64,000 bases of DNA from Thermoanaerobaculia bacterium (GTDB taxonomy: Bacteria > Acidobacteriota > Thermoanaerobaculia > Gp7-AA8): positions 152,720 to 216,719 of the forward strand of contig DATAJY010000005.1 in assembly GCA_036261885.1 (NCBI GenBank), given 5' to 3'. How positions within the stretch are numbered: position 1 is the stretch's first letter; the number at the start of each line of letters is the position of its first letter. Both the position numbers and the translations under genes were made by a program. Positions 1,842 through 43,574 of the stretch are shown piece after piece. Below the pieces are notes generated by a model. That model was not told the origin of the DNA and did no database searches. It worked only from the letters and a program-made list of their open reading frames with translations.

Positions 1842-3940
1842 TTTCCCGGTCGCTCCTGGCGCTCCTGCTCCTCACCGGCGCGGCTCACGCCGCGCCGGTT
1901 CGTTTGGTCGACGCAGAAGGAACGCGCGTCGTCATCGATGGCCAGCTCGTGACGACTTCCGGCGTCATCGAAGTTCGCGCGGGCGAGGCGGACGTGCCGG
2001 TTGATGGACCGCCGGTGGACGTGCGGCTCGTGGCGAAAGGATGGTGGGCCCTCCCCGCGTCCGTGAGCGTGGCCGGCACGGAGTTGCGGGTCTGGAAAAG
2101 CGGCACGCTGACCGGACGGGCCGTCGTGGCGACGGGTGCGCAGCGACCGGCGACGTTTCAGGCAGTCGTCGAAGTGCCGCCGCATGCCGGGACGACGTCT
2201 TCGTTGCCGCGGGGGACGAAGTTCGATTGCGCGATGACGGCGGACGATCACTTCTCGTGCGAACTGCCGGCGACGACGCTCGATCTCGTCTTTCGTTCGA
2301 AGGGCCTGACGCCGCAGTATCGGTGGAAGGTCGAGATTCCTTCCGGCGCCACGCGCGACGTCGGAACCGTGCGCTGGCAGCCGGGCGCTTCGATCGTCGT
2401 CTGGCTCGAACGCGATTCGGCGAAGGCCGCGGCGGAAAAAGGAGCCAGGGCGATTCTCACGCGCATGACGAGCGGCGATCCTTCGGCGACGAGTGCGAAT
2501 CTGGCCGTGCCGGTCGCGGAAGCGGCTTTCGATGTGCGTGGCCACGCGCAACTCGCACCGCTCAGCGCCGGACTCTATCGCCTCGAAGTGGCGGCGCCCG
2601 GGTTCGCGCGCGCGAGCATTTCGCCGATCGAAGTGTTCGAGGGAAGCGAGAGCGTGCTGCGCAAGCCGATCGTGCTCGAACCGCCGGTTCGCATCACGCT
2701 CGCGCTGCATCCCGCGTTGGATTTTCAGGGCGAACGCTGGCGCGTCTCGTTCCGGAGATTGCCCGATGCGGCGTCTCCGATGTCCGGCAACAGGCGCGAA
2801 TTGCGCGCCGACGAAAGCGGCGAGGTCGCGATCGAAGGGGAGTCACCGGGACGATTTCGGGCCACGGTTTCGGACGCTGACGGGAACCGGCTGGTGTCGC
2901 ATGAGTTCCAGGTCACGAGCGCGATCGATGCGCGCCAGGAGCTCACGCTCGAACGACATCCCGTCGAAGGGACGGTGATGCTCGGCGAGCGGCCACTCGC
3001 CGCGGAGGTCATTTTCGGCACCGCCGACGGTGCCGAAAGGCTCACGCTCACCTCCGACGACGAAGGCAAATTCACCGGCGCGATCAGCCGCCTCGGCAGG
3101 TGGATGGTGGAGATTCGTGCGCCCGACCGCGCGATTCGCACCATTCGTACCGTCACACTCGTCAAAGACGAGCCGGTGATGCTTCGACTCGAAGACGGAC
3201 AGATCGCCGGACACGTCGTCGACGAAGAGGGCAAGCCCGTCAGGGCGACGATCGTCGTGTCGAACGGACCAATTGCCGAGACGCACCAGACTGATGCCGG
3301 GGGTGCGTTTCGCATCGGCGGTCTCGCAGGAAGCGTGCGTTTGAAAGCGAATGCCTCACGCGATCGGGAGAGCGCGGCGCTGATCGTCGACGTCACCGGC
3401 AACAAGCACGTCGACGACCTGACGTTGCGTCTCGACGGACGTCGTGACGTGCAGGGGCGTGTCGTCGTCGACGGTCAATCGCTTCCCGGCGCCGCCGTAT
3501 CGGTTTATCCCGAGAGTGGTGGTGCGGTGATGCGCGCGACGACCGATCTCGAAGGACGCTTCCGCGTGACCGTGCGCGATCAGGAGTCGTTCGTCACGTA
3601 CGTCGTGGCCGCGGCCGGACGAACGATCGCCGCGTTCCGGCGTCCCGCGGGTGAAGAGGCGACGCTCGCGCTCGACGCCGCCGGCGGTGAAGTCCTCGTG
3701 CTCCCCGGCGAATCCGATCAGATCACGCTGTTGCACAACGGCGCCCGGATTCCGCTGCAGGAAGTGTTGCGATGGAATCGCGCGAACGGCCGCGATCTCT
3801 TTGATCGCGATGGCAATCTCACGATTGCGAACGTCGCACGCGGAACGATTCGCGCGTGTGCACCGACGAAAGCGCGCGGCGAAGTCTGCAGGGACGCATT
3901 GCTGGTGCCTCGTGGTTCCGTGACACTCGATCTGCGCTGA
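1838..3940 (+). CDS. secreted protein with multiple carboxypeptidase-regulatory-like / Ig-like beta-sandwich repeats (700 aa)
   Basis: GTG start overlapping the upstream stop. Signal peptide 'MISRSLLALLLLTGAAHA'. Reiterated 'G(H/R)VVD..GKPV..A.V' and 'VRAPGF'-like motifs typical of the CarbopepD_reg fold. Confidence 0.7.
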   Translation: MISRSLLALLLLTGAAHAAPVRLVDAEGTRVVIDGQLVTTSGVIEVRAGEADVPVDGPPVDVRLVAKGWWALPASVSVAGTELRVWKSGTLTGRAVVATGAQRPATFQAVVEVPPHAGTTSSLPRGTKFDCAMTADDHFSCELPATTLDLVFRSKGLTPQYRWKVEIPSGATRDVGTVRWQPGASIVVWLERDSAKAAAEKGARAILTRMTSGDPSATSANLAVPVAEAAFDVRGHAQLAPLSAGLYRLEVAAPGFARASISPIEVFEGSESVLRKPIVLEPPVRITLALHPALDFQGERWRVSFRRLPDAASPMSGNRRELRADESGEVAIEGESPGRFRATVSDADGNRLVSHEFQVTSAIDARQELTLERHPVEGTVMLGERPLAAEVIFGTADGAERLTLTSDDEGKFTGAISRLGRWMVEIRAPDRAIRTIRTVTLVKDEPVMLRLEDGQIAGHVVDEEGKPVRATIVVSNGPIAETHQTDAGGAFRIGGLAGSVRLKANASRDRESAALIVDVTGNKHVDDLTLRLDGRRDVQGRVVVDGQSLPGAAVSVYPESGGAVMRATTDLEGRFRVTVRDQESFVTYVVAAAGRTIAAFRRPAGEEATLALDAAGGEVLVLPGESDQITLLHNGARIPLQEVLRWNRANGRDLFDRDGNLTIANVARGTIRACAPTKARGEVCRDALLVPRGSVTLDLR

Positions 3941-4399: not shown

Positions 4400-6379
4400 T
4401 CAGTCTTCCGCGACGACGATGACGCGGTCTTCCGCTCCGAACGACACCGTGTCGCTCTTGCGCGGATTCACGCGCACGCCGTCGGTGCTGCCGTTGTTCC
4501 CGCTGGCCACGCGGTAGCCGATGGCCACTTCGCCGCGGCGGCGGGCCGCTTCCACGACGTGCCAGTACGACACCGGTTTGCCGAGGACGACGTAGTCCGA
4601 CATCGGCCGCAGGTAGATCTCCGAACCGTCGGAGTCGAAGATGTCGTCGAACACCGCGCGCAGATCACGGTTCTCGGTGACCTGGGCGACGAGAAGGCTG
4701 GTGAGGTTCTCGCTGACGATGAAGTCGTCGGCCTGCGTGACTTCGGCGAGCTCGCGATTGCGGGCATCGAGCATTTCGCTGACGATCGAATAGCGGTTCG
4801 TGCCGCTCTTCGCTTCGATGTCGCGCAGGTGCAGCAGCGTCACGAGCGTGCGCGCGTCCGCTTTCTGCACCGGCAGGTCGTCGGCGTAGCAGAGCACGAC
4901 GATGTGCTGATACTGCTCCGGATCGACGCTCTCGATCGTCTCGCGATCGCTGGAGTCGCCGCGGCGGAAGTCGAGCGACTGCCGCGACAGGCGCGGCCGC
5001 AGCGCCTCGATTCCTTCCTCGATTCCGGGCGCATCGGCCACCACGGTCATGAGCGAGCCGGGGGCGACGTAGTTGTCGAGCTCCCGAATGATGATCGGTG
5101 CGCGTGCGCTCCAGCCGAGGAGCAGAGTCTTCTCCGGCGTCTCGACGGAGTTGCGTTTCTCGACCATGAGCGATGCGTCGATCGACGGGGTGTGTCTGGT
5201 GATCTGAATCGCGGCCGCGTCGGCGGCGATGACGATCGCCTCGTCGCCCGGCGCGAAGCGACGATCCATCGGCGGATTGAGCTGCACGATGCCGTCGGCC
5301 GTCTTCACGCCGATGATCGAGCAGCTGTCGAAGGCGAACAGTGAATCGGCGAACGAGAGGTTGTCGAGCGCGGCGTCGCGCTTGAAGTAGATCTCGTCGC
5401 CGCCGTAATCGAGGAGCTCCGTGTAGACGCCCGACAAACCGGTCTGGCGGCAGGTCTGGGCCACGACGCGGGCGATGGTCTCGCCGGTCTCGATGAGCTG
5501 CGCTTCGTCGCGGCCGACCAGGCGGGCCGGCTCCATGTTGCGGCGCTCGCGGATCTCCGCGACGATGTGGAACTTCTCTTCGCGCCGTTCCGGATGATTC
5601 GTCACGGCGAGGATGGTCTTGATCACTTCGGCATCGGGGTCGTCGCCGTCCGGGGAGAGCACGACGATGGCGCGCGCGGCGTTGAAGTTGACGATCTTCA
5701 GATCGCCGAGATCGATCGGCGTGCCGCGGCGGCAGACGATGCGCGTCGTCTTCGTGTCGGCGATGCGCTCGCGCACTTCATCGTCCATCGACACCTTGTC
5801 GCGGTCGGCCATGATCACGATCACGTTCCGCTTGCGATGTTCATTGCCGAGAATCAGCTCCCCGACGATCGAGAAGATGCGGTCGTTCCAGCCGAGGATG
5901 ACCACGTGATCGGTTTCTGCGACGACGGAGCGCCCTTTGCGCAGCTCTTCGATCTGATTGCCGACGCCGTTCGAGATGAGACCGATCAGCGTGCCGACGA
6001 TGAACACACCGCCGAGCGTGACGAGCAGCATCATCACCAGATACGCCGCCGAACCGGTGTCACCGCCCATCGTCCCCGCGTCGAGCGTGCGCATCAGGTT
6101 GTGCCACATCAGATCGGGGAACGAGAGAGCCGCGCCGTTTTCGCCGGCCGGCACCGCGCCGATCAGCGTCAGGAGAATCGACGCGAGCGCGAGAAAGGCG
6201 ATGGTGAGAATGGCCAGCCAGGCGATGAGCGCCGGCGTGCCTTTGGACAACGTGTTGTCGAATGCGTAGCGCAAACGCTGACGCAGCGTGAAGGTTTTCA
6301 CCGGGCACCTCTCGAATTGTGTTTTCGGACCGCGCCGGCACGGTAACAGAAAAGGTTCAGCCGCGTAACAGGAGAACAC
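4400..6379 (-). CDS. CASTOR/POLLUX (DMI1)-like cation channel with tandem RCK/TrkA-N domains (659 aa)
   Basis: N-terminal TM helices and a pore-like segment 'LDAGTMGGDTG', followed by 'VVILGWNDRIFSIVGELI' and a second 'LLLGWSARAPIIIREL' Rossmann/RCK unit. The start here is GTG; the true start is uncertain. Confidence 0.65.
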   Translation of the reverse strand: MFSCYAAEPFLLPCRRGPKTQFERCPVKTFTLRQRLRYAFDNTLSKGTPALIAWLAILTIAFLALASILLTLIGAVPAGENGAALSFPDLMWHNLMRTLDAGTMGGDTGSAAYLVMMLLVTLGGVFIVGTLIGLISNGVGNQIEELRKGRSVVAETDHVVILGWNDRIFSIVGELILGNEHRKRNVIVIMADRDKVSMDDEVRERIADTKTTRIVCRRGTPIDLGDLKIVNFNAARAIVVLSPDGDDPDAEVIKTILAVTNHPERREEKFHIVAEIRERRNMEPARLVGRDEAQLIETGETIARVVAQTCRQTGLSGVYTELLDYGGDEIYFKRDAALDNLSFADSLFAFDSCSIIGVKTADGIVQLNPPMDRRFAPGDEAIVIAADAAAIQITRHTPSIDASLMVEKRNSVETPEKTLLLGWSARAPIIIRELDNYVAPGSLMTVVADAPGIEEGIEALRPRLSRQSLDFRRGDSSDRETIESVDPEQYQHIVVLCYADDLPVQKADARTLVTLLHLRDIEAKSGTNRYSIVSEMLDARNRELAEVTQADDFIVSENLTSLLVAQVTENRDLRAVFDDIFDSDGSEIYLRPMSDYVVLGKPVSYWHVVEAARRRGEVAIGYRVASGNNGSTDGVRVNPRKSDTVSFGAEDRVIVVAED

Positions 6380-35911: not shown

Positions 35912-38431
35912 TCACGCCGTCCCTCCGCAGTTCCGGAGCGCATCGCGCATCGCGGCCGCGCTGGCGAAGCGGTCGCGCGGCGCGCGCCGCAGCGAGGTGA
36001 GGAGCACGTCCGCGAGTGCGGCGGGAACGAGTGGCTGCAGCGTCCGCGGATCGGCGACGTCTTCGCCGAGGATGCGATTCATGGTCAGGACGGCAGTGCC
36101 GGCCGCGAACGGATTCGCGCCGGTCAGCGCTTCGTAGAGCGTCACGCCGATGCTCCAGACGTCCGCCGCCGGGCTCGCCACCTCTCCGATCGCCACCTCC
36201 GGCGCGAGATAACGCGGCGTGCCGGCGATGTTCGTCGTGCCTGTCTCGCGTGCGAACGCGGCCAGCCCGAAGTCGAGCAGCTTCGGGGTGTCGTTTCGAT
36301 CGAAGCCGATGTTCGACGGCTTCACGTCGCGATGCAGCACGCCCGCCGCGTGCGCATGCGCCAGCGCATCGCAGAGCGCGATGCCGATGCGCAGCACTTC
36401 GCCGGCCGCGAGCGGGCCGCGCTCCAGGCGTTCCGCCAGCGTGCCTCCGTCGAGCAGTTCGAAGAGCAGCAGCGGTTGTCCGCGCCAGCTGTCGGCCGCG
36501 TGGATCGTGGCGATCGATGGATGCGACAGCGCCGCTGCCGCGTGAGCCTCCCGTTCGAAGCGCGCGATCGCATCGGCTCCGACGGCCGGCAGCATCTTGA
36601 CGGCGATGTCGCGGCCGAGGGCGAGATCGCGCACCTGATAGACGACGCCCATCGCACCGCTGCCGATACGGCGCTCGAAGCGGAACTTCGCATGCAGCAC
36701 GTGCGGGACGTTCGCCGCAACGAGCGGCATGTCGTCCTGCGCGCAGCGTGTGGCGGCGAGCGGGTCGGTCACCCGCGCGCACGCGGGACAGATCCGCGCG
36801 AGCTCGGGATCGTCGAGGACGACGGGCGCCGGTCTCGCCTCGCGCAATCGAATGGTCTCGAGCGCGAGGGCGGTCGCGCTGCCGATCGTGCCCGCCAGCA
36901 GGCGATCGTTCTCATCGAACGGCAGGCCGCTCATCTTCTCTCCCGCCGCGAGCACCGCGGAGCCGGCCGGCACGAGCAGCCGGATCTGACGCTGTTCGAG
37001 CCACTGGCGTTCGATCGTCGAGAGTGTGGCCAGGAACCGCGCATCGACGTCGGCGATCGCGTCGATCGTGCTCATGCGCCACGAGGGTTCAGGCGTGACC
37101 AGCGTCGCCGATTCGAGTCGCAGCGCCGCGGTCAGCGTTTCGGCGACGTCGCGGGCGAGTGCCTCCGTGGTGGTCACGGAGTGCACGCGCTGTGTGAAGT
37201 CGTGCAGTACGCGCCGCGCGTCGGCCGTGTCGCGGAGAAACGTGCGCTCCAGCGATCTGCGCGCGAGGCGTGCGAGCGCGATCAGCGCGATCGCGAGCAG
37301 CGCGAGGAAGCTGCGCGTCACGAGCAGCACTGCCACGACGACCAGCATCACCGCCAGCAGCGTGCGATCGGCGACGGCGAAGACGACCGCGCGGCGGGTG
37401 AGAACGCCGGCACGTTCGACGCGGCGTGCCAGCAGCGCGTAGGCGAGGGAGAGCGGAACGAGCAGCAGCGGCAACAGCAGCAACGCCATGAGCTCGCGCG
37501 GCATCGCCAGCCGTGACGTGACGGCGAGCGAGAGGAACTGCACGAGCATGCCGGCCAGCGGAATGCCGATGCCGAGGAGCAGGCCGAGGGCGACGAGGCG
37601 CGCGCGGTCGCGCATCTCGGCGGCCCCCCGCGTGCGCAGTTGCCGTACGACGAGCAGCAGCGCGGCCACGACGGTCGCGAGATACGGCACGCTCTGCAGC
37701 AGCGCACCTTCGACGAGCGAGGCGATCGCGGTGGCGCCGGGAACGCGATCGAACAGCACACCGATCTGCGACCACGCGAAAAGAATCGACCGCGCGATGG
37801 CGAGGAACGATACGGCGCCGAGAATCGCGCGCATCACGCGGCCGATCGGCAGCGCGTGCGGCAGATCGGCCGCGAGGAGCAGCAGGTAGCGGCACCAGAG
37901 CGCGGCCGGCACGAGCGCGTAGAGCACGATGATCGCGTCGCGCAGTGCGCGCGAGTCGATGAGCACGAGGTTCGGCTCGAGAAACCCGAAGCCGAGCGTC
38001 GCGCCGGCGCCGGCGAGAAAGCCTCCCGCGTGCAGCGCCGCGCGATTCTGTCCCGCGAGGCCGAGGGCCAGGCCGGCCACGAGCGAGACGAGCGCGAGCA
38101 ACGCGAGCACCGCGCGACGCACGAGCGTGGCGCGGTCGGCGGCGACGTTGCGCACCGGGCCGCGCACGATGCGTCCGTCGCGCAGCCGATAGGCGATCTC
38201 GCTTCCTACCGGCGCATTGCGAAATCGCCGTCGGGCCTCCGGCGACGCCGCCGCGACGAACGGCGCATTGCCGAAACGAATGGCCACGACGCCCGCGTCG
38301 CGCGCGGGAAACGGCAGCGGATGCACGCGCATCGTGGCGATCGTGCCGATGGCCATCGGTGCGAGCGGCAGCACCACGAGCGCACAGCAGATGCAGAACA
38401 GCCGAATGACTGCAGGCCGCAGGGAAGTCAT
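35912..38431 (-). CDS. membrane-anchored Ser/Thr protein kinase with large N-terminal multi-TM sensor region (840 aa)
   Basis: Internal ATG at 38431 ('MTSLRPAVIRLFCICCALVVLPLA...'), then ~8 TM helices. C-terminal Hanks kinase 'GSGAMGVVYQV', 'AVKML', 'HRDVKPSNIGF', 'DFGLA' and 'GTPRYLAPE'. The upstream 218 codons in the ORF track are Ser/Arg-rich junk. Confidence 0.7.
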   Translation of the reverse strand: MTSLRPAVIRLFCICCALVVLPLAPMAIGTIATMRVHPLPFPARDAGVVAIRFGNAPFVAAASPEARRRFRNAPVGSEIAYRLRDGRIVRGPVRNVAADRATLVRRAVLALLALVSLVAGLALGLAGQNRAALHAGGFLAGAGATLGFGFLEPNLVLIDSRALRDAIIVLYALVPAALWCRYLLLLAADLPHALPIGRVMRAILGAVSFLAIARSILFAWSQIGVLFDRVPGATAIASLVEGALLQSVPYLATVVAALLLVVRQLRTRGAAEMRDRARLVALGLLLGIGIPLAGMLVQFLSLAVTSRLAMPRELMALLLLPLLLVPLSLAYALLARRVERAGVLTRRAVVFAVADRTLLAVMLVVVAVLLVTRSFLALLAIALIALARLARRSLERTFLRDTADARRVLHDFTQRVHSVTTTEALARDVAETLTAALRLESATLVTPEPSWRMSTIDAIADVDARFLATLSTIERQWLEQRQIRLLVPAGSAVLAAGEKMSGLPFDENDRLLAGTIGSATALALETIRLREARPAPVVLDDPELARICPACARVTDPLAATRCAQDDMPLVAANVPHVLHAKFRFERRIGSGAMGVVYQVRDLALGRDIAVKMLPAVGADAIARFEREAHAAAALSHPSIATIHAADSWRGQPLLLFELLDGGTLAERLERGPLAAGEVLRIGIALCDALAHAHAAGVLHRDVKPSNIGFDRNDTPKLLDFGLAAFARETGTTNIAGTPRYLAPEVAIGEVASPAADVWSIGVTLYEALTGANPFAAGTAVLTMNRILGEDVADPRTLQPLVPAALADVLLTSLRRAPRDRFASAAAMRDALRNCGGTA

Positions 38432-38475
38432 TTGTGCTGGAATTGAAATGCTGCTTTCTATACTAGCTGCCTTCA
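38432..38475. promoter_or_regulatory. AT-rich divergent promoter region between the kinase and LuxR genes
   Basis: 'tttgtgctggaattgaaatgctgctttctatactagctgcct' is ~40% GC, sharply below background, and is flanked by two divergent start codons. Confidence 0.35.
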
Positions 38476-39194
38476 TGAGATTGGACGCGCTCCGTCGTTT
38501 GTGGGAACGGCTTCGTGCGAGCGGCGGCAGCGCGCACGTGCTCGACAGTGACTCATTCACCGAAAGCGAGCGCGCCGTCGGGCGGATGGTGCTGCCGCTC
38601 ATCGCCGATCTCGAGAGCGCGCGGCAGACCATCGCCGATCTCACGGAGAAGGCGCTGGCCATCGATGCGCTGCTGCGTCTCGTCCCTTCCGCCGCGCTCG
38701 TCGTCGACGAACAGGGACGGCTGTTCTCCTCCAACGATGCGGCCAAGGCGCTCTTCGGCGGTCCGGCCATTCCGCTGTCGATCGTCGAGGTCGCGTCGCG
38801 CGCGTTGCGTTCCGGAGAAGAACGCGAATGCGATGCTGTCGCGCACCCGCGCCGCTCCGGCAGTTCGCTGCGCGTCGTGCCGGCGGACGTGGAACGGCGC
38901 GAGTCCGGACCCGGCGTCGTGTTTCTGGTCGCACCGGAAGGAGACGGCGGCGTCGATGAAGACGAAGTGGCGCAGCGTCTGCGGCTGACTCCGATGCAGG
39001 CCCGCGTGGTCTCGCTCGTCGCGCGCGGACTCTCGAATCGCGAAGTGGGCGAGCGCCTCGGTCTGTCGATCGAGACCGTGCGCAAACATCTCGCCGCCGC
39101 GTATCAGAAGACCGGCGTTCCCAATCGCGCCGGTGTCGTTGCGCTCGCCTATGGCGCGCGCTTCGGCGCGCGTCCGCCGCTCGATCTGATGTAA
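38476..39194 (+). CDS. LuxR-family transcriptional regulator (239 aa)
   Basis: C-terminal HTH 'LTPMQARVVSLVARGLSNREVGERLGLSIETVRKHLAAAYQKTGV'. ATG at 38476 ('MRLDALRRLWERL...'). Confidence 0.7.
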
Positions 39195-39262
39195 CCCGCT
39201 CGGGTGATGTCGCACGCTCGCGCGAACGCGACACTCCTCGCATCAACAAAACGGAGGCAGAG
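39189..39262 (+). promoter_or_regulatory. conserved intergenic element, copy 1 (palindrome ACCCGCTCGGGT plus conserved RBS-proximal block)
   Basis: 'taacccgctcgggtgatgt...gcatcaacaaaacggagg' sits immediately after the LuxR stop. A near-identical element follows the next gene. Confidence 0.5.
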
Positions 39263-39877
39263 ATGAGAAGACCGAATACGACCAGTCTGGAGTTTTTACG
39301 AAGCGAAGCCGGAGCACGGCTCACCCGTGCACTCGTCGGGCAATACATCGATTCCGCGAGCCTGTCCGCCGACACCTGGTGCAAGGAGGCGTCGGCGCAG
39401 CAGCGATTCGACTGGCTGCTCAACGATTTTCTGGCCGTGCTCGAGACGAGAGGCGTTCCGTATCCGCTCACGTTCCGCGGCGATCTGGAAGGCGTCTACT
39501 CCGAGCGCTACTTCGATCTCTATCCGCCGGACGAGAAGGATGCGTGTCCGTACTACCTGATCCTCATCGCCGTCAGCCGCATCCTCGCGGAGCTGACCAT
39601 CAACGTCTGGAAGCTCGAGCGGGGAGAGCTGGGGGAGTACCCGAAGCCGAAGCCCGATCGCGTCTTCTCGTTTCTGCATCTGCAGTGGGCGCGCGAAGCC
39701 TTCGGCTGGTGGGCCGCGAACCTCGCGCATCTCGTGTACGACCTGAAGTATCCGCCTCCCTGCGCGGAACAGAATCCGATCCGGCTGGCCATGCTCGAAA
39801 ACCTCGACGACGCCACGAAACGCGAGCTGGTGGTGCTCAAGCCGGTGGAACTGGAGAGCGGTTGCCCGGTCTGCTAA
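39263..39877 (+). CDS. hypothetical protein (204 aa)
   Basis: ATG at 39263 with GGAGG RBS. No recognisable motif. Ends '...ESGCPVC'. Confidence 0.5.
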   Translation: MRRPNTTSLEFLRSEAGARLTRALVGQYIDSASLSADTWCKEASAQQRFDWLLNDFLAVLETRGVPYPLTFRGDLEGVYSERYFDLYPPDEKDACPYYLILIAVSRILAELTINVWKLERGELGEYPKPKPDRVFSFLHLQWAREAFGWWAANLAHLVYDLKYPPPCAEQNPIRLAMLENLDDATKRELVVLKPVELESGCPVC

Positions 39878-39950
39878 CCCGATCGGGTGATGTGGCCCGC
39901 CTCCCTGCGGCGCACATTGCGCGCATCACCAACGACGAAGGAGATGCGTA
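39873..39950 (+). promoter_or_regulatory. conserved intergenic element, copy 2 (perfect palindrome ACCCGATCGGGT)
   Basis: 'taacccgatcgggtgatgt...gcatcaccaacgacgaaggag' matches copy 1 at both ends, with the same placement relative to the flanking stop and start codons. Confidence 0.5.
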
Positions 39951-40751
39951 ATGACGACACTGAGTGAGTTCCAGGAACAGATTCTCATGCACCCCGACGT
40001 GACGCTGTACGGCCCGAGCCACGAGAAGTACGCGCACTTCGCGCTCAAGCACAACTGGGCGACGTTCGGCATCTCGAACGAAGTCTTTCCCGGCGTGCGC
40101 GCCGGCGAACCGCTGCCGGCGCGCAGCGACAACGACGTGCAGTGGGTCTGGCCGCACGAGATCGTTTCGTTCCTCTGGAACGTGCCGGGAGGATTTCTCC
40201 CGGTGCTGGCCAGCGCGCCGAAAGCGGTCTACGAGTTCTTCCGCGCCGTGATCGACAACGGCGGGCTGTCGCAGGAGACGGCGCGGCAGTTCGTCCGCAA
40301 CGACATCGGTTCGTGGCGGCAGTTCTTCGCCACCCTCGGCAGCGACCACCGCTTCATCGACCTGCGGCCGGACTGGGCGAAATGGTGCCGCTACTTCGGC
40401 GGCGTCGGTCCGATGCCGTCCACCGCGCAGCGGATGGATGTCGCCGAGCTCGACGATCCGCGCATTCGCGAGCTCGTCGCGCTCATCGCCCTCGGCCTCG
40501 GCATCGTCGTCGCCGCGACCGTCAGTGCCATCGGAATGATCATCACCGTCATCGGCACGGCCGTGACCATCGCGGTCGCGTTCCCGCCCGCCGCACCGGC
40601 GATGATCGTGATCAGCGTCTGCCTGATCGTGCTGGCCGGCATCGGCTGGGCGCTGTCGGTGGCACTGGCCATCATCTACATGGCCGTGCAGGGATCGCTG
40701 ATCTTCAATCCGGGAACGGAGCTCGCCGAGGTGCAGGCCCTGGCGTCGTGA
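39951..40751 (+). CDS. hypothetical protein with C-terminal small-residue-rich TM helices (266 aa)
   Basis: ATG at 39951. Soluble N-domain, then 'LVALIALGLGIVVAATVSAIGMIITVIGTAVTIAVAF...VISVCLIVLAGIGWALSVALAIIYMAV'. Confidence 0.5.
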   Translation: MTTLSEFQEQILMHPDVTLYGPSHEKYAHFALKHNWATFGISNEVFPGVRAGEPLPARSDNDVQWVWPHEIVSFLWNVPGGFLPVLASAPKAVYEFFRAVIDNGGLSQETARQFVRNDIGSWRQFFATLGSDHRFIDLRPDWAKWCRYFGGVGPMPSTAQRMDVAELDDPRIRELVALIALGLGIVVAATVSAIGMIITVIGTAVTIAVAFPPAAPAMIVISVCLIVLAGIGWALSVALAIIYMAVQGSLIFNPGTELAEVQALAS

Positions 40752-40806
40752 TGATCCGGAACGCGTGGAGTGGTGGGCCGCTCCACGCGTTTCCTTTCGC
40801 TCGCGG

Positions 40807-41460
40807 TCACCGCGCCGAGATCTCCTCCATCACCCGCGCCACGACGCGATCGCAGCGCGACGCACCGAAACTGAAGATGCTGTGCAGTCCTGCGCCGGCG
40901 CGCCGATCGACCGCGTCGCGCAGCATCGTGCGTGCGCGATGCAGGCGCGTCTTCACGACGTCGGCGCTCACCTCGAGACACGCCGCCGTCTCCTCGGTGC
41001 TCAACCCTTCCACCTCGCGAAGCAGCAGCACGGAACGGTAAGCCTCCGGAAGCGCCGCCACTTCTGCTTCGACGTGATGCATCAGATCGGCGGCAACCGC
41101 GCGCGTTTCCGGATCGGGACCGGGCTCTGGAAAGTTGGTCATCTCTTCCTCGATGGGGGAATGCGCGGATTTCCTGTTTCTCGCGGAAGCTTCGCGCAAC
41201 GCGATCTTCGTCAGCCACGTGGCGAAGCTCGCGCGTCCTTCGAATTGATGGAGGTGGCGATACGCATTCACGTACGCCTGCTGCATGACATCCTCCGCAT
41301 CGGCGTCATTGCGGAGCACGGCCCGCACCGCGCGGTAGATGCGCTGGTTGTAGCGCCGCAGCAGCAGCTCGAACAACTCGCGCTCGCCCGCCACCACCCG
41401 CCGGACCACTTCGTCATCGGTGAGCTCCATCGGGCGCGCGGCAACCTCGGCAATGGTCAT
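40807..41460 (-). CDS. ECF-type sigma-70 factor with short C-terminal extension (217 aa)
   Basis: 'ELFELLLRRYNQRIYRAVRAVL', 'FATWLTKIALREA' (region 2) and 'GLSTEETAACLEVSADVVKTRLHRARTML' (region 4). ATG at 41460 with AAGGA upstream. Confidence 0.7.
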   Translation of the reverse strand: MTIAEVAARPMELTDDEVVRRVVAGERELFELLLRRYNQRIYRAVRAVLRNDADAEDVMQQAYVNAYRHLHQFEGRASFATWLTKIALREASARNRKSAHSPIEEEMTNFPEPGPDPETRAVAADLMHHVEAEVAALPEAYRSVLLLREVEGLSTEETAACLEVSADVVKTRLHRARTMLRDAVDRRAGAGLHSIFSFGASRCDRVVARVMEEISAR

Positions 41461-41576
41461 GAGTGATTCTCGTCCTTTCTGCATTAGAGGGCCCGGACCG
41501 CGCCGGGGTGACAACGAAATTGCGGTGTCACCGATTGCCGGTGCGCTCGCTCTAATCGGGAAAGGAGACAGCACAC

Positions 41577-41978
41577 ATGAATCCACAACTCGAACTTCCG
41601 TTCCGTGCCCTGCGCATCGGCCTCGGCGCGGGCGCCTTTCTCGCCGGCCTCGACAAATTCTTCAACCTTCTGACGCAGTGGGAGTCGTACCTCAGTCCGC
41701 TGGTCACGAACCTGATTCCACTCACGCCCGCCACGTTCATGCGCATCGTCGGCGTGATCGAAATGATCGCCGGCCTCGTCGTGCTGGCCGGTCTCACGCG
41801 CCTCGGCGGCTACGTCATCGCCGCCTGGCTCGTCCTCATCGCTCTCAGCCTCGTGACCACCGGCAGGTTCTTCGACGTTGCCGTCCGCGACGTCGAGATG
41901 GCCATCGCCGCCTTCACTCTGGCCCGCCTCAGCGAGGCGCGCGAACGCGTTCCGCAGAGAGTCGCGGCTCCGGCGTAA
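41577..41978 (+). CDS. DoxX-family membrane protein (133 aa)
   Basis: AAAGGAG RBS. Four hydrophobic helices ('RIGLGAGAFLAGLDKFFN', 'MRIVGVIEMIAGLVVLAG') typical of DoxX. Confidence 0.65.
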   Translation: MNPQLELPFRALRIGLGAGAFLAGLDKFFNLLTQWESYLSPLVTNLIPLTPATFMRIVGVIEMIAGLVVLAGLTRLGGYVIAAWLVLIALSLVTTGRFFDVAVRDVEMAIAAFTLARLSEARERVPQRVAAPA

Positions 41979-42026
41979 TCGGGACGGCTGCATCGACTTT
42001 CGCTTGACCGAGGTACACCATTTCGC

Positions 42027-43574
42027 ATGACAGAGCCGAACAGCACTCGCGATCTGCAGGAAGGCGTGCCCGTGAATGAGCTCGCCGATGGCGGCATGCT
42101 CGCCGGCCGCGTTGGTGAGGACGACGTTCTCCTTGCACGGCGCGGCGACGAGTTCTTCGCGCTCGATGCATTCTGCACGCACTATCACGGGCCACTCGCG
42201 GAGGGAGCGCTGGTCGGCGAGGCGGTTCATTGCCCATGGCATCACGCCTGTTTCGATCTTCGCTCCGGAAGTGCGATTGGTGCGCCGGCGATGCGTCCCC
42301 TGCGCACCTGGCGCACCGAGAGAACGGATGGTGTGGTGCGCGTGCTTCCGAACCCGGTGGTCGTGCATGCGCCCGCGGCGGCATCCGATCCGACGCATGT
42401 CGTGATCGTCGGCGCGGGCGCCGCAGGATCGTTTGCCGCATCGGAGTTGCGCCGGATCGGTTTCGGCGGGCGAGTGACGCTTCTCACGCGTGAGGATCGT
42501 CTGCCGTACGACAAGCCGAATCTTTCGAAGGACTATCTCGCCGGGCGTGCGCCGCAGGAGTGGATTCCTCTCCGGTCGGAGGGGGAGTACGCGGAAGATC
42601 GCGTCGAACTGCGGCTGCGCGCGAATGTCGAACGGATCGATCGTGCTCGGCACGTCGTCGCGTTGTCGGGCGGCGAGACGATCCGATACGACCGGCTCAT
42701 TCTCGCCACCGGTGCGCAGCCACGACGGCTCGAACTCCCGACGGCGCCGGAGGCGCGCGTCTCTTATCTGCGGACGTGGGGTGATGCGGATGCGGTGCTC
42801 GCGATCGCCGGATCGGTTCGACGCGTCGTCGTCATCGGCACGAGCTTCATCGGTCTCGAGGTTGCGGCCTCTCTGCGCGAACGTGGGCTGGAGGTGACGG
42901 TGGTCGGTCCCGCCGAACGGCCGCTCGCGGCGATGGGACAGGAGGTGGGTGACTTCGTGCGCAGCGTTCACGAATCGCGCGGCGTCCGATTCCGTCTCGG
43001 CCGCCGTCCCACCGCGGTGCGCGGCGATGGCGTCGTTCTCGACGACGGCAGCGTCGAACCTTGCGATTTCGTCGTCGCAGGGATCGGCGTCACCCCCGAC
43101 CTCGCACTGGCCGAGCGCGCAGGCCTGACGATCGATCGCGGCATCGTCGTCGATGCACACCTGCAAACCGACGATGCCGACATCTTCGCCTGCGGCGACG
43201 CCGCCCGATTTCCACTCGCGCGTACCGGCCAGTCGATTCGCGTGGAGCACTGGGCCGCCGCCGCGAAGCAGGGACAACTCGCCGCGCGCAACGCCGCCGG
43301 CCGTCGCGACCGCTTCACGACGGTGCCGTTCTTCTGGAGTCAGCATTACGACCTCGTGCTCTCCTACGTCGGCTACACGGAGCACGTCGACGACGTCGAA
43401 ATTTTCGGCTCACTCGCCAAGCACGACGCCGCGATCCTCTACCGCGATGCAAACCGCATCGCCGCCGTCGCCACACTCTTCCGCGACGACATCAGCCTCG
43501 CCGTCGAAACGGCAATGGAGCAAAACGCCGCCGACACCACGATTCTCGACATCGTGCGTCGCGGTTTTCGGTAA
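42027..43574 (+). CDS. Rieske [2Fe-2S] domain fused to FAD/NAD(P)H-dependent ferredoxin-reductase-type oxidoreductase (515 aa)
   Basis: Rieske ligands 'CTHYHGPL' and 'CPWHHACF'. FAD Rossmann 'VVIVGAGAAGSFAAS' and NAD 'VVVIGTSFIGLEVAAS'. Confidence 0.75.
   Translation: MTEPNSTRDLQEGVPVNELADGGMLAGRVGEDDVLLARRGDEFFALDAFCTHYHGPLAEGALVGEAVHCPWHHACFDLRSGSAIGAPAMRPLRTWRTERTDGVVRVLPNPVVVHAPAAASDPTHVVIVGAGAAGSFAASELRRIGFGGRVTLLTREDRLPYDKPNLSKDYLAGRAPQEWIPLRSEGEYAEDRVELRLRANVERIDRARHVVALSGGETIRYDRLILATGAQPRRLELPTAPEARVSYLRTWGDADAVLAIAGSVRRVVVIGTSFIGLEVAASLRERGLEVTVVGPAERPLAAMGQEVGDFVRSVHESRGVRFRLGRRPTAVRGDGVVLDDGSVEPCDFVVAGIGVTPDLALAERAGLTIDRGIVVDAHLQTDDADIFACGDAARFPLARTGQSIRVEHWAAAAKQGQLAARNAAGRRDRFTTVPFFWSQHYDLVLSYVGYTEHVDDVEIFGSLAKHDAAILYRDANRIAAVATLFRDDISLAVETAMEQNAADTTILDIVRRGFR

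Follow-up and report, generated by a model that had tools for sequence, protein, structure and literature searches.

Paired palindromic elements behind a LuxR-type regulator gene of a Thermoanaerobaculia bacterium as candidate LuxR-box promoters

We analyzed a 64,000-nucleotide stretch of DNA from a Thermoanaerobaculia bacterium of the phylum Acidobacteriota (contig DATAJY010000005.1, positions 152,720 to 216,719 of the forward strand; hereafter, the window), in which a gene for a LuxR-type regulator is followed by two uncharacterized genes, termed here gene A and gene B, each preceded by a copy of a short palindromic element. The source genome was seen as this window, to which the copy counts given below refer. 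The genes and sequence features of the locus are listed in Table 1. As had been stated in a first-pass annotation of the same DNA, a large membrane Ser/Thr protein kinase is encoded divergently, on the opposite strand from the LuxR gene; the earlier call of the LuxR gene also holds, except that its ATG lies at position 38475 and not at 38476. The two elements occupy the intergenic region between the LuxR gene and gene A (IGR1, 68 nt) and that between gene A and gene B (IGR2, 73 nt).

Table 1. Genes and sequence features of the locus in window coordinates; boxes, promoter hexamers, and start sites are predictions.
Feature	Position	Strand	Description
Membrane Ser/Thr protein kinase, 839 aa	35912..38431	-	Multi-pass N-terminal region; C-terminal Pkinase domain, residues 584-828, E = 7.6e-43
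Putative -10 of the LuxR gene, TATACT	38459..38464	+	Read from the sequence, 10 nt upstream of the ATG; function inferred
LuxR/GerE-type one-component regulator, 239 aa	38475..39194	+	GerE/LuxR helix-turn-helix (HTH), residues 171-225, E = 8.3e-10
Box 1, TAACCCG-CT-CGGGTGA then TG	39192..39209	+	7-2-7 dyad; candidate LuxR site overlapping the -35 region of the gene A promoter
Spacer 1, exactly 20 nt	39210..39229	+	Sequence unconserved, GC-rich; hairpin potential TGTCGC/GCGACA; minimum free energy (MFE) z = -2.06
-10-like hexamer GACACT, proposed gene A promoter	39230..39235	+	Predicted start A 39242, inside GCATC
Gene A, 204 aa	39263..39877	+	All-helical; invariant HLxWAREAFGWW, C-terminal GCPxC motifs
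Box 2, TAACCCG-AT-CGGGTGA then TG	39875..39892	+	Begins at the gene A stop; candidate LuxR site of the gene B promoter
Spacer 2, exactly 20 nt	39893..39912	+	Sequence unconserved; GAUGUG...CACAUU can close a hairpin around the spacer; z = -2.21
-10-like hexamer CACATT, proposed gene B promoter	39913..39918	+	Predicted start A 39925, inside GCATC
Shine-Dalgarno AAGGAG of gene B	39938-39943	+	
Gene B, 266 aa	39951..40751	+	N-terminal domain; C-terminal pair of long small-residue-rich transmembrane helices
Canonical intrinsic terminator past gene B	40760..40799	+	Perfect 11-bp stem 40760-40770/40781-40791, then a T-rich tail; inner part found by the terminator scan
Extracytoplasmic function (ECF) sigma-factor gene	40807-41586	-	Convergent with gene B

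The 19-mer TAACCCGNTCGGGTGATGT was found twice in the 64-kb window without a single mismatch, at 39192-39210 (+) and 39875-39893 (+), and no third copy appeared there even with 3 mismatches allowed. Its chance expectation is 0.02 copies per window, and two or more copies occurred in 0/100 shuffles; the repeat is real and non-random. The 12-bp cores of the palindrome are ACCCGCTCGGGT at 39194-39205 and ACCCGATCGGGT at 39877-39888, the latter being perfect. Both copies of the element begin with the TAA that ends the preceding gene and run up to the ATG of the next one. These results bear out the recurring, stop-proximal palindromic motif that the first-pass annotation had reported and for which it had suggested a genome-wide 19-mer search, run here on the window. 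Its description of the two regions as near-identical over ~70 bp stands for short blocks only: the ungapped identity of IGR1 and IGR2 is 47/74 (64%), with a 5' block matching at 18/19 positions and a block around GCATC at 13/18, whereas the middle matches at 7/19.

Relatives of the locus were collected mainly through gene A. A word-indexed search of 5.8 billion proteins returned three gene A clusters besides its own, a profile search added four further clusters, and HMMER, run exhaustively against 1.84 billion representatives, found 11 strong matches; a protein-based metagenome scan produced pattern matches but no confirmed relative. Judged from these searches, gene A is rare. The contigs carrying it, together with a Thermoanaerobaculia metagenome-assembled genome (MAG) found through the DNA motif (L031), make up nine distinct related loci. 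Where the contig is long enough, the gene order is kinase (-), LuxR (+), gene A (+), and one more gene (+), the divergent kinase being kept in the related loci that reach far enough upstream. The gene A product is 29-65% identical across these loci, compared with 77-92% for the LuxR protein (seven loci), whose recognition helix is nearly invariant.

Thirteen copies of the element from the nine loci could be aligned over 66 columns with zero gaps (numbered from the T of TAA as position 1). Positions 1-16 form the dyad TAACCCG-N2-CGGGTGA, in which C4, C5, G12, and G13 are invariant in all 13 copies, as is the GATG at positions 15-18. The dyad is followed by a free spacer (positions 19-38), always 20 nt long and scrambled in sequence, and then by an NAnnnT hexamer (positions 39-44), in which A40 and T44 are invariant (13/13) and T43 is nearly so; most copies also have GCATC at positions 49-53. 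The hexamer reads CACATT in seven copies, GATATT in two, and CATCTT, GATCTT, GACACT, and AAGATT in one each. At IGR2, seven of the nine copies have CACATT, the other two being CATCTT and GATCTT. The element upstream of the last gene is present in 9/9 related loci. Of the copies between the LuxR gene and gene A, only those of the window, L001, and L005 are intact; that of L128 is degenerate, and L126 and L031 retain no more than TGACCC(G).

The anatomy of these copies is that expected of an operator-promoter pair. The dyad spans 16 bp, within the ~16-20 bp of dyad-symmetric operators, and includes a 12-bp perfect palindrome in IGR2. Its center (position 8.5) lies 30.5 bp upstream of the -10-like hexamer and would thus be at -42.5 if transcription starts 7 nt past the hexamer, as predicted. 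The putative promoter would then consist of a -35 region reading aTGnnn (positions 16-21), a 17-bp spacer, a -10 element at positions 39-44, and a start at the A in position 51. The distance from the box to the hexamer is exactly 20 nt in 13/13 copies, as well as in at least seven LuxR-linked boxes of other phyla (see below). Because a spacer of exact length and scrambled sequence joins a symmetric box to a hexamer with two key -10 bases, we interpret the element as a promoter. What had been annotated earlier as a conserved 5'-untranslated region is conserved indeed, but is better read as a core promoter (-10 and start) plus a short leader.

Three unrelated proteins, all without a known family, alternate behind the second box, while the kinase, the LuxR gene, gene A, and the box remain. 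The 266-aa membrane protein encoded by gene B occurs only in the window, L001, and L005, and formed only two clusters among the 5.8 billion proteins searched. In five loci, the last gene encodes an unrelated protein of 161-163 aa (L003 6721-7206, L031 5368-5859, L126 3241-3732, L127 1302-1790, and L131 5731-6219), and in L128 it encodes a third unrelated protein of 153 aa (4604-5065). Since the box is kept while the gene downstream of it changes among three unrelated proteins, it appears to belong to the regulator and not to the cargo. The exchange of the last gene suggests a conserved sensor-regulator core with an exchangeable output.

Genes A and B had been called unannotated, in agreement with our searches, in which neither had a Pfam, NCBIfam, or PADLOC family; no paralogy between the two was found. 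The small-residue-rich C-terminal transmembrane helices proposed for the gene B product are present in its AlphaFold2 (AF2) model as two long helices, residues 170-210 and 212-252. These are the only confident part of the model, whose predicted local distance difference test (pLDDT) score of 58 is too poor for a fold search. A reading of the locus as a defense system was rejected, as PADLOC matched the generic kinase domain only. The terminator past gene B, which separates it from the convergently oriented ECF sigma-factor gene, looks bidirectional.

The box was also found beside LuxR-type genes outside the Acidobacteriota. When one genome per species was scanned for AACCCGNTCGGGTGATG, with the downstream sequence left unconstrained, at least 120 stretches were obtained, and the matches listed are mostly single chance hits in unrelated taxa. 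At least seven of the matches have TAnnnT exactly at positions 39-44, versus 0-3 at shifted offsets. Among the matches listed, a LuxR homologue was detected nearby by tblastn for 7/7 of those with TAnnnT versus 1/112 of the others (Fisher p = 1.4e-10). Near-consensus -10 hexamers such as TAGCAT and TACGAT are seen at the boxes of other phyla.

Three alphaproteobacterial loci (L036, L125 from the cultured Oceanibacterium hippocampi, and L055) have the box in front of dctP, a gene of tripartite ATP-independent periplasmic (TRAP) transporters, which is divergent from a LuxR-type gene. In these boxes (L036 3145-3162 (-), L125 5430-5447 (-), and L055 2075-2092 (+)), 20 nt are followed by TAGCAT, TAGAGT, or TAGCGT. 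The arrangement of box and genes resembles that of a regulator-operator pair for TRAP transporters, apparently an undescribed one; in L036 and L125, the LuxR alignment reaches past the HTH into the N-terminal part. In L039, the box stands directly after a short GerE-only open reading frame, as in IGR1, and a bactofilin gene comes next. Eremiobacterota MAGs (L029 at 1547-1600, L099, and L106) have the box before an HtrA-type protease gene and a small LuxR-type gene ~2 kb downstream. The same box precedes a homologous protein in nine soil contigs (L154, L159, L172, L179, L192, L214, L222, L226, and L235), at least two of which (L214 and L222) also encode a LuxR-type HTH downstream. At most of the protease loci, the ATG lies 5-6 nt past the hexamer, which is the position of the predicted start, so that the box would be upstream of the transcript and the mRNA apparently leaderless. 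Gene A was not found in the box contexts of other phyla, and a LuxR-type gene is the sole neighbor common to all contexts, among the proteins searched for.

The metagenome DNA scan from which the protease cluster was taken had forced A40 and T44; it cannot by itself prove a -10 element and was used for this cluster and for background only. It had no overall excess of T at position 39. In addition, many soil contigs (L133-L252; e.g., L188 at 5979-5998, L165, L178, L190, L204, and L241) contain a palindrome, (CA)TCACCCGATCGGGTGA(TG), that is perfect over 16-20 bp. TCA on its left flank shows clear enrichment, although the pattern did not ask for it, and the contexts of the palindrome include cydA and PRC-barrel genes.

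The first-pass annotation had offered three explanations of the repeat, namely an operator of the LuxR protein, a processing or attenuation site, and a small mobile repeat. The first is supported by the conservation of the box at the same positions in nine loci with a 77-92% identical LuxR protein and by the fixed distance to the -10 hexamer in other phyla, which make it a candidate LuxR site. A GerE-type regulator is encoded directly upstream of the boxes, is conserved together with them in the related loci, and is associated with them across phyla.

The N-terminal domain of the regulator has weak Pfam matches to PAS and MLTR_LBD, and no autoinducer-binding domain was found by Pfam, which reported only GerE and these weak matches. 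A quorum-sensing LuxR, that is, an acyl-homoserine lactone receptor, was rejected because such a domain is missing and the neighbors are a kinase and uncharacterized genes and not a LuxI/LuxR pair. The best solved relatives of the protein are EL222 (E = 1e-6), NarL, DosR, and GerE, in each case with only the C-terminal HTH aligned. The putative -10 element of the LuxR gene is conserved in the divergent regions of L001, L126, L128, and L131, and relatives have TATAAT at the position of TATACT. Because TATACT or TATAAT precedes the LuxR gene, the organism appears to use -10 elements of the TATAAT type. This hexamer stands 4-10 nt before the ATG with no Shine-Dalgarno sequence (window 38432-38474; L001 5173-5215; L126, L128, and L131), and the mRNA from which the LuxR protein is made probably has no leader or almost none.

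One related locus, L128, stands apart at both the boxes and the regulator. The CCC and GGG half-sites of its boxes are 2 bp further apart, reading CCCG-TTCC-CGGG in IGR1 (~3760-3810) and CCC-GCTTTA-GGG in IGR2 (~4500-4560), and its LuxR is the only one with an altered recognition helix (SVETVRKHLT versus SIETVRKHLA elsewhere). This may be a case of co-variation between protein and site, and it adds a little weight to the reading of the box as a site of the LuxR protein.

We propose, with a probability of about 0.65, that the two elements are LuxR-box promoters of gene A and gene B that act at the DNA level. According to this model, the LuxR protein would be made from its own strong and nearly leaderless promoter, and a LuxR dimer would bind the dyads at 39192-39207 and 39875-39890. 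From -42.5, a class II position, the bound protein would contact RNA polymerase and replace the -35 element, of which only aTG is present here; the polymerase would thereby be recruited to the weak core promoters (GACACT and CACATT), and genes A and B induced. Each of these genes would have a promoter of its own and could be induced independently of the LuxR gene. In addition, transcription from the LuxR promoter probably reads through to some extent, because no terminator separates the LuxR gene, gene A, and gene B. We infer from the sequence that this LuxR protein binds the boxes, that it activates rather than represses, and where transcription starts; activation is favored because the core promoters are weak and the geometry is that of a class II activator. 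Control of the LuxR protein through its PAS-like N-terminal domain or by the neighboring kinase is a conjecture.

Several observations weigh against this proposal. The dyad is short, with 12 bp perfect and 16 bp including one mismatch, and the GATG on its right side has no mirror on the left. A consensus promoter scan found nothing at the elements, which is expected for a weak promoter and is not positive evidence. The hexamer CACATT could pair with GATGTG, and the folds of the spacers are somewhat more stable than those of shuffled sequences (mean z = -0.95). The recognition helix of the window protein has no more than generic GerE residues in common with those of its LuxR homologues in other phyla, and the loci within one context are homologous, so that the contexts amount to 3-4 independent observations.

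Four other explanations were considered. The LuxR protein might bind the same site as a repressor, blocking RNA polymerase at -50 to -33 or stopping, as a roadblock, polymerases that read through from the LuxR promoter. The overlap of the site with the -35 region, the near-consensus -10 elements of other phyla (TAGCAT and TACGAT), which might fire unaided, and the read-through made likely by the lack of a terminator between the LuxR gene and genes A and B would all suit a repressor. The core promoters of this family, with CACATT and GACACT as hexamers and no TTG at -35, rather fit dependence on an activator, -42.5 is the classical activator position, and activators prevail among one-component LuxR-type proteins that have sensor domains, so we regard repression as improbable, although it is the strongest of the alternatives. 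An element acting in the polycistronic transcript is somewhat less probable still. Its hairpins, ACCC-GNUC-GGGU and GAUGUG...CACAUU, could serve processing, stability, or attenuation, or could control translation through pairing among GGUGAUG, CAUCACC, and the Shine-Dalgarno sequence. Columns 15-20 and 39-44 pair in 83% of cells, with one G-C to C-G swap, the spacer folds are slightly better than shuffles in 12/13 copies, and CGCAUC...GAUGCG can sequester the Shine-Dalgarno sequence of IGR2. Yet there is no real covariation, the helix formed by 15-20 and 39-44 being mostly invariant, and no length variation among the 13 copies; RNAalifold retained only the 4-bp stem of the palindrome, and the folds of the whole elements are ordinary (z = -0.5 and -1.3). 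No Rfam match was obtained in the element at E <= 1, a scan of 36000-43000 giving two chance-level hits outside it. Boxes in other, non-intercistronic contexts have no hairpin excess (mean z = +0.08), and elsewhere the same box precedes genes that appear to be leaderless and would itself not be transcribed. An intrinsic terminator was rejected, since the terminator scan found none in IGR1 or IGR2, only the one past gene B; the hairpins are followed by CACAUUGCG and ACACUCCUC and not by a U-tract. The processing or attenuation site offered by the first-pass annotation is, therefore, not borne out. The excess hairpin potential of the spacer (positions 15-46; 39206-39237 and 39889-39920 in the window) is confined to the intercistronic copies of this lineage, and a secondary role of the spacer hairpin in its polycistronic RNA is possible, judging from these folds.

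That the box is read by another factor, either an alternative sigma factor with GGGTGATG as its -35 element or a different regulator, the link to LuxR being indirect, seems unlikely. The invariant GATG outside the dyad symmetry and the ECF sigma-factor gene just downstream could be taken in this sense, but that gene is absent from the related loci, a LuxR-type gene is the only shared neighbor, among the proteins searched for, in all four contexts, and the symmetry of the dyad speaks for an HTH protein that binds as a dimer. By eye, neither a sigma-54 nor an ECF promoter fits the conserved blocks in spacing and bases, and both readings were rejected. Least probable of all, and very improbable in our view, is a small mobile repeat, akin to the repetitive extragenic palindromic (REP) elements, that landed twice in the operon. 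The two copies are palindromic, intergenic, and placed right after stop codons, as such a repeat might be. There are only these two in 64 kb, however, and none in the ~60 kb of flanks of the nine related loci; the copies hold orthologous positions between genomes with proteins only 29-65% identical, and they have kept their ends and length while the middle is scrambled, the opposite of a recently moved repeat. The mobile repeat considered in the first-pass annotation is thus not upheld. Candidate LuxR-box promoters remain our preferred interpretation of the two elements.

Among the strings found for the palindrome in the searchable literature were only primers and unrelated sequences, and the box sequence is apparently undescribed there; the regulatory principle is standard, and no new one is proposed. 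A broader hypothesis, which we hold tentatively and consider doubtful as a whole, is that TAACCCG-N2-CGGGTGATG, with a 20-nt spacer and TAnnnT behind it, may mark an undescribed and very widely spread GerE/LuxR group with one operator and promoter geometry from Acidobacteriota to Alphaproteobacteria and Eremiobacterota. In Thermoanaerobaculia, this group would be wired to a membrane Ser/Thr kinase and drive gene A plus an exchangeable cargo, and the intercistronic copies might double as an insulating hairpin at RNA 3' ends within the same ~50 nt. If the promoter model is correct, the locus would provide a testable regulatory wiring of a rare module of uncultured Acidobacteriota, composed of a kinase, a PAS-like LuxR protein, a helical protein, and a swappable cargo, and the signature TAACCCGNTCGGGTGATG-N20-TAnnnT could serve to predict, in several phyla, which genes related LuxR-type regulators control, with TNACCCGNNCGGGTNA as the box pattern for scanning genomes. 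The parts worth following are the conservation of the box and its geometry across phyla and the uncharacterized module of kinase, LuxR protein, and gene A.

Compared with known systems, the elements resemble REP sequences and intercistronic stem-loops in being GC-rich palindromes directly after stop codons within an operon. They differ from these in that there are two undispersed copies at orthologous positions and that sequence and exact length are conserved rather than structure. With the class II lux box of LuxR and TraR (luxI of Vibrio fischeri), they would share a dyad for a dimer of a LuxR-family HTH protein, centered at about -42.5 (PMC3376562), a value that in our case depends on the predicted start of transcription. 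As at the lux box, the gene of the regulator lies next to the site, which overlaps a weak -35 element and would take its place. Unlike the lux box, the dyad has 16 bp with a 12-bp perfect core and not 20 bp, and its sequence is a different one; the regulator here lacks an autoinducer-binding domain and is not one of a LuxI/LuxR pair.

The regulator itself can be compared with EL222, a LOV/PAS-HTH protein and the best solved sequence match to the LuxR HTH (E = 1e-6). A sensor joined to a GerE-type HTH would be common to both, an architecture that rests here on the weak PAS hits. In contrast to EL222, to which the match is limited to the HTH (residues 163-228), the LuxR protein of this locus has a Ser/Thr kinase as its conserved neighbor. 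Unlike NarL and DosR-type response regulators, it has no receiver domain and an N-terminus that is weakly PAS-like, and the heptamers of its candidate site differ in sequence from those of NarL, DosR, and GerE. Nevertheless, its HTH aligns with the NarL, DosR, and GerE chains. NarL sites have a 7-2-7 arrangement, and the box described here is likewise composed of inverted heptamers placed 2 bp apart (TAACCCG-AT-CGGGTGA), with a C/G-rich core.

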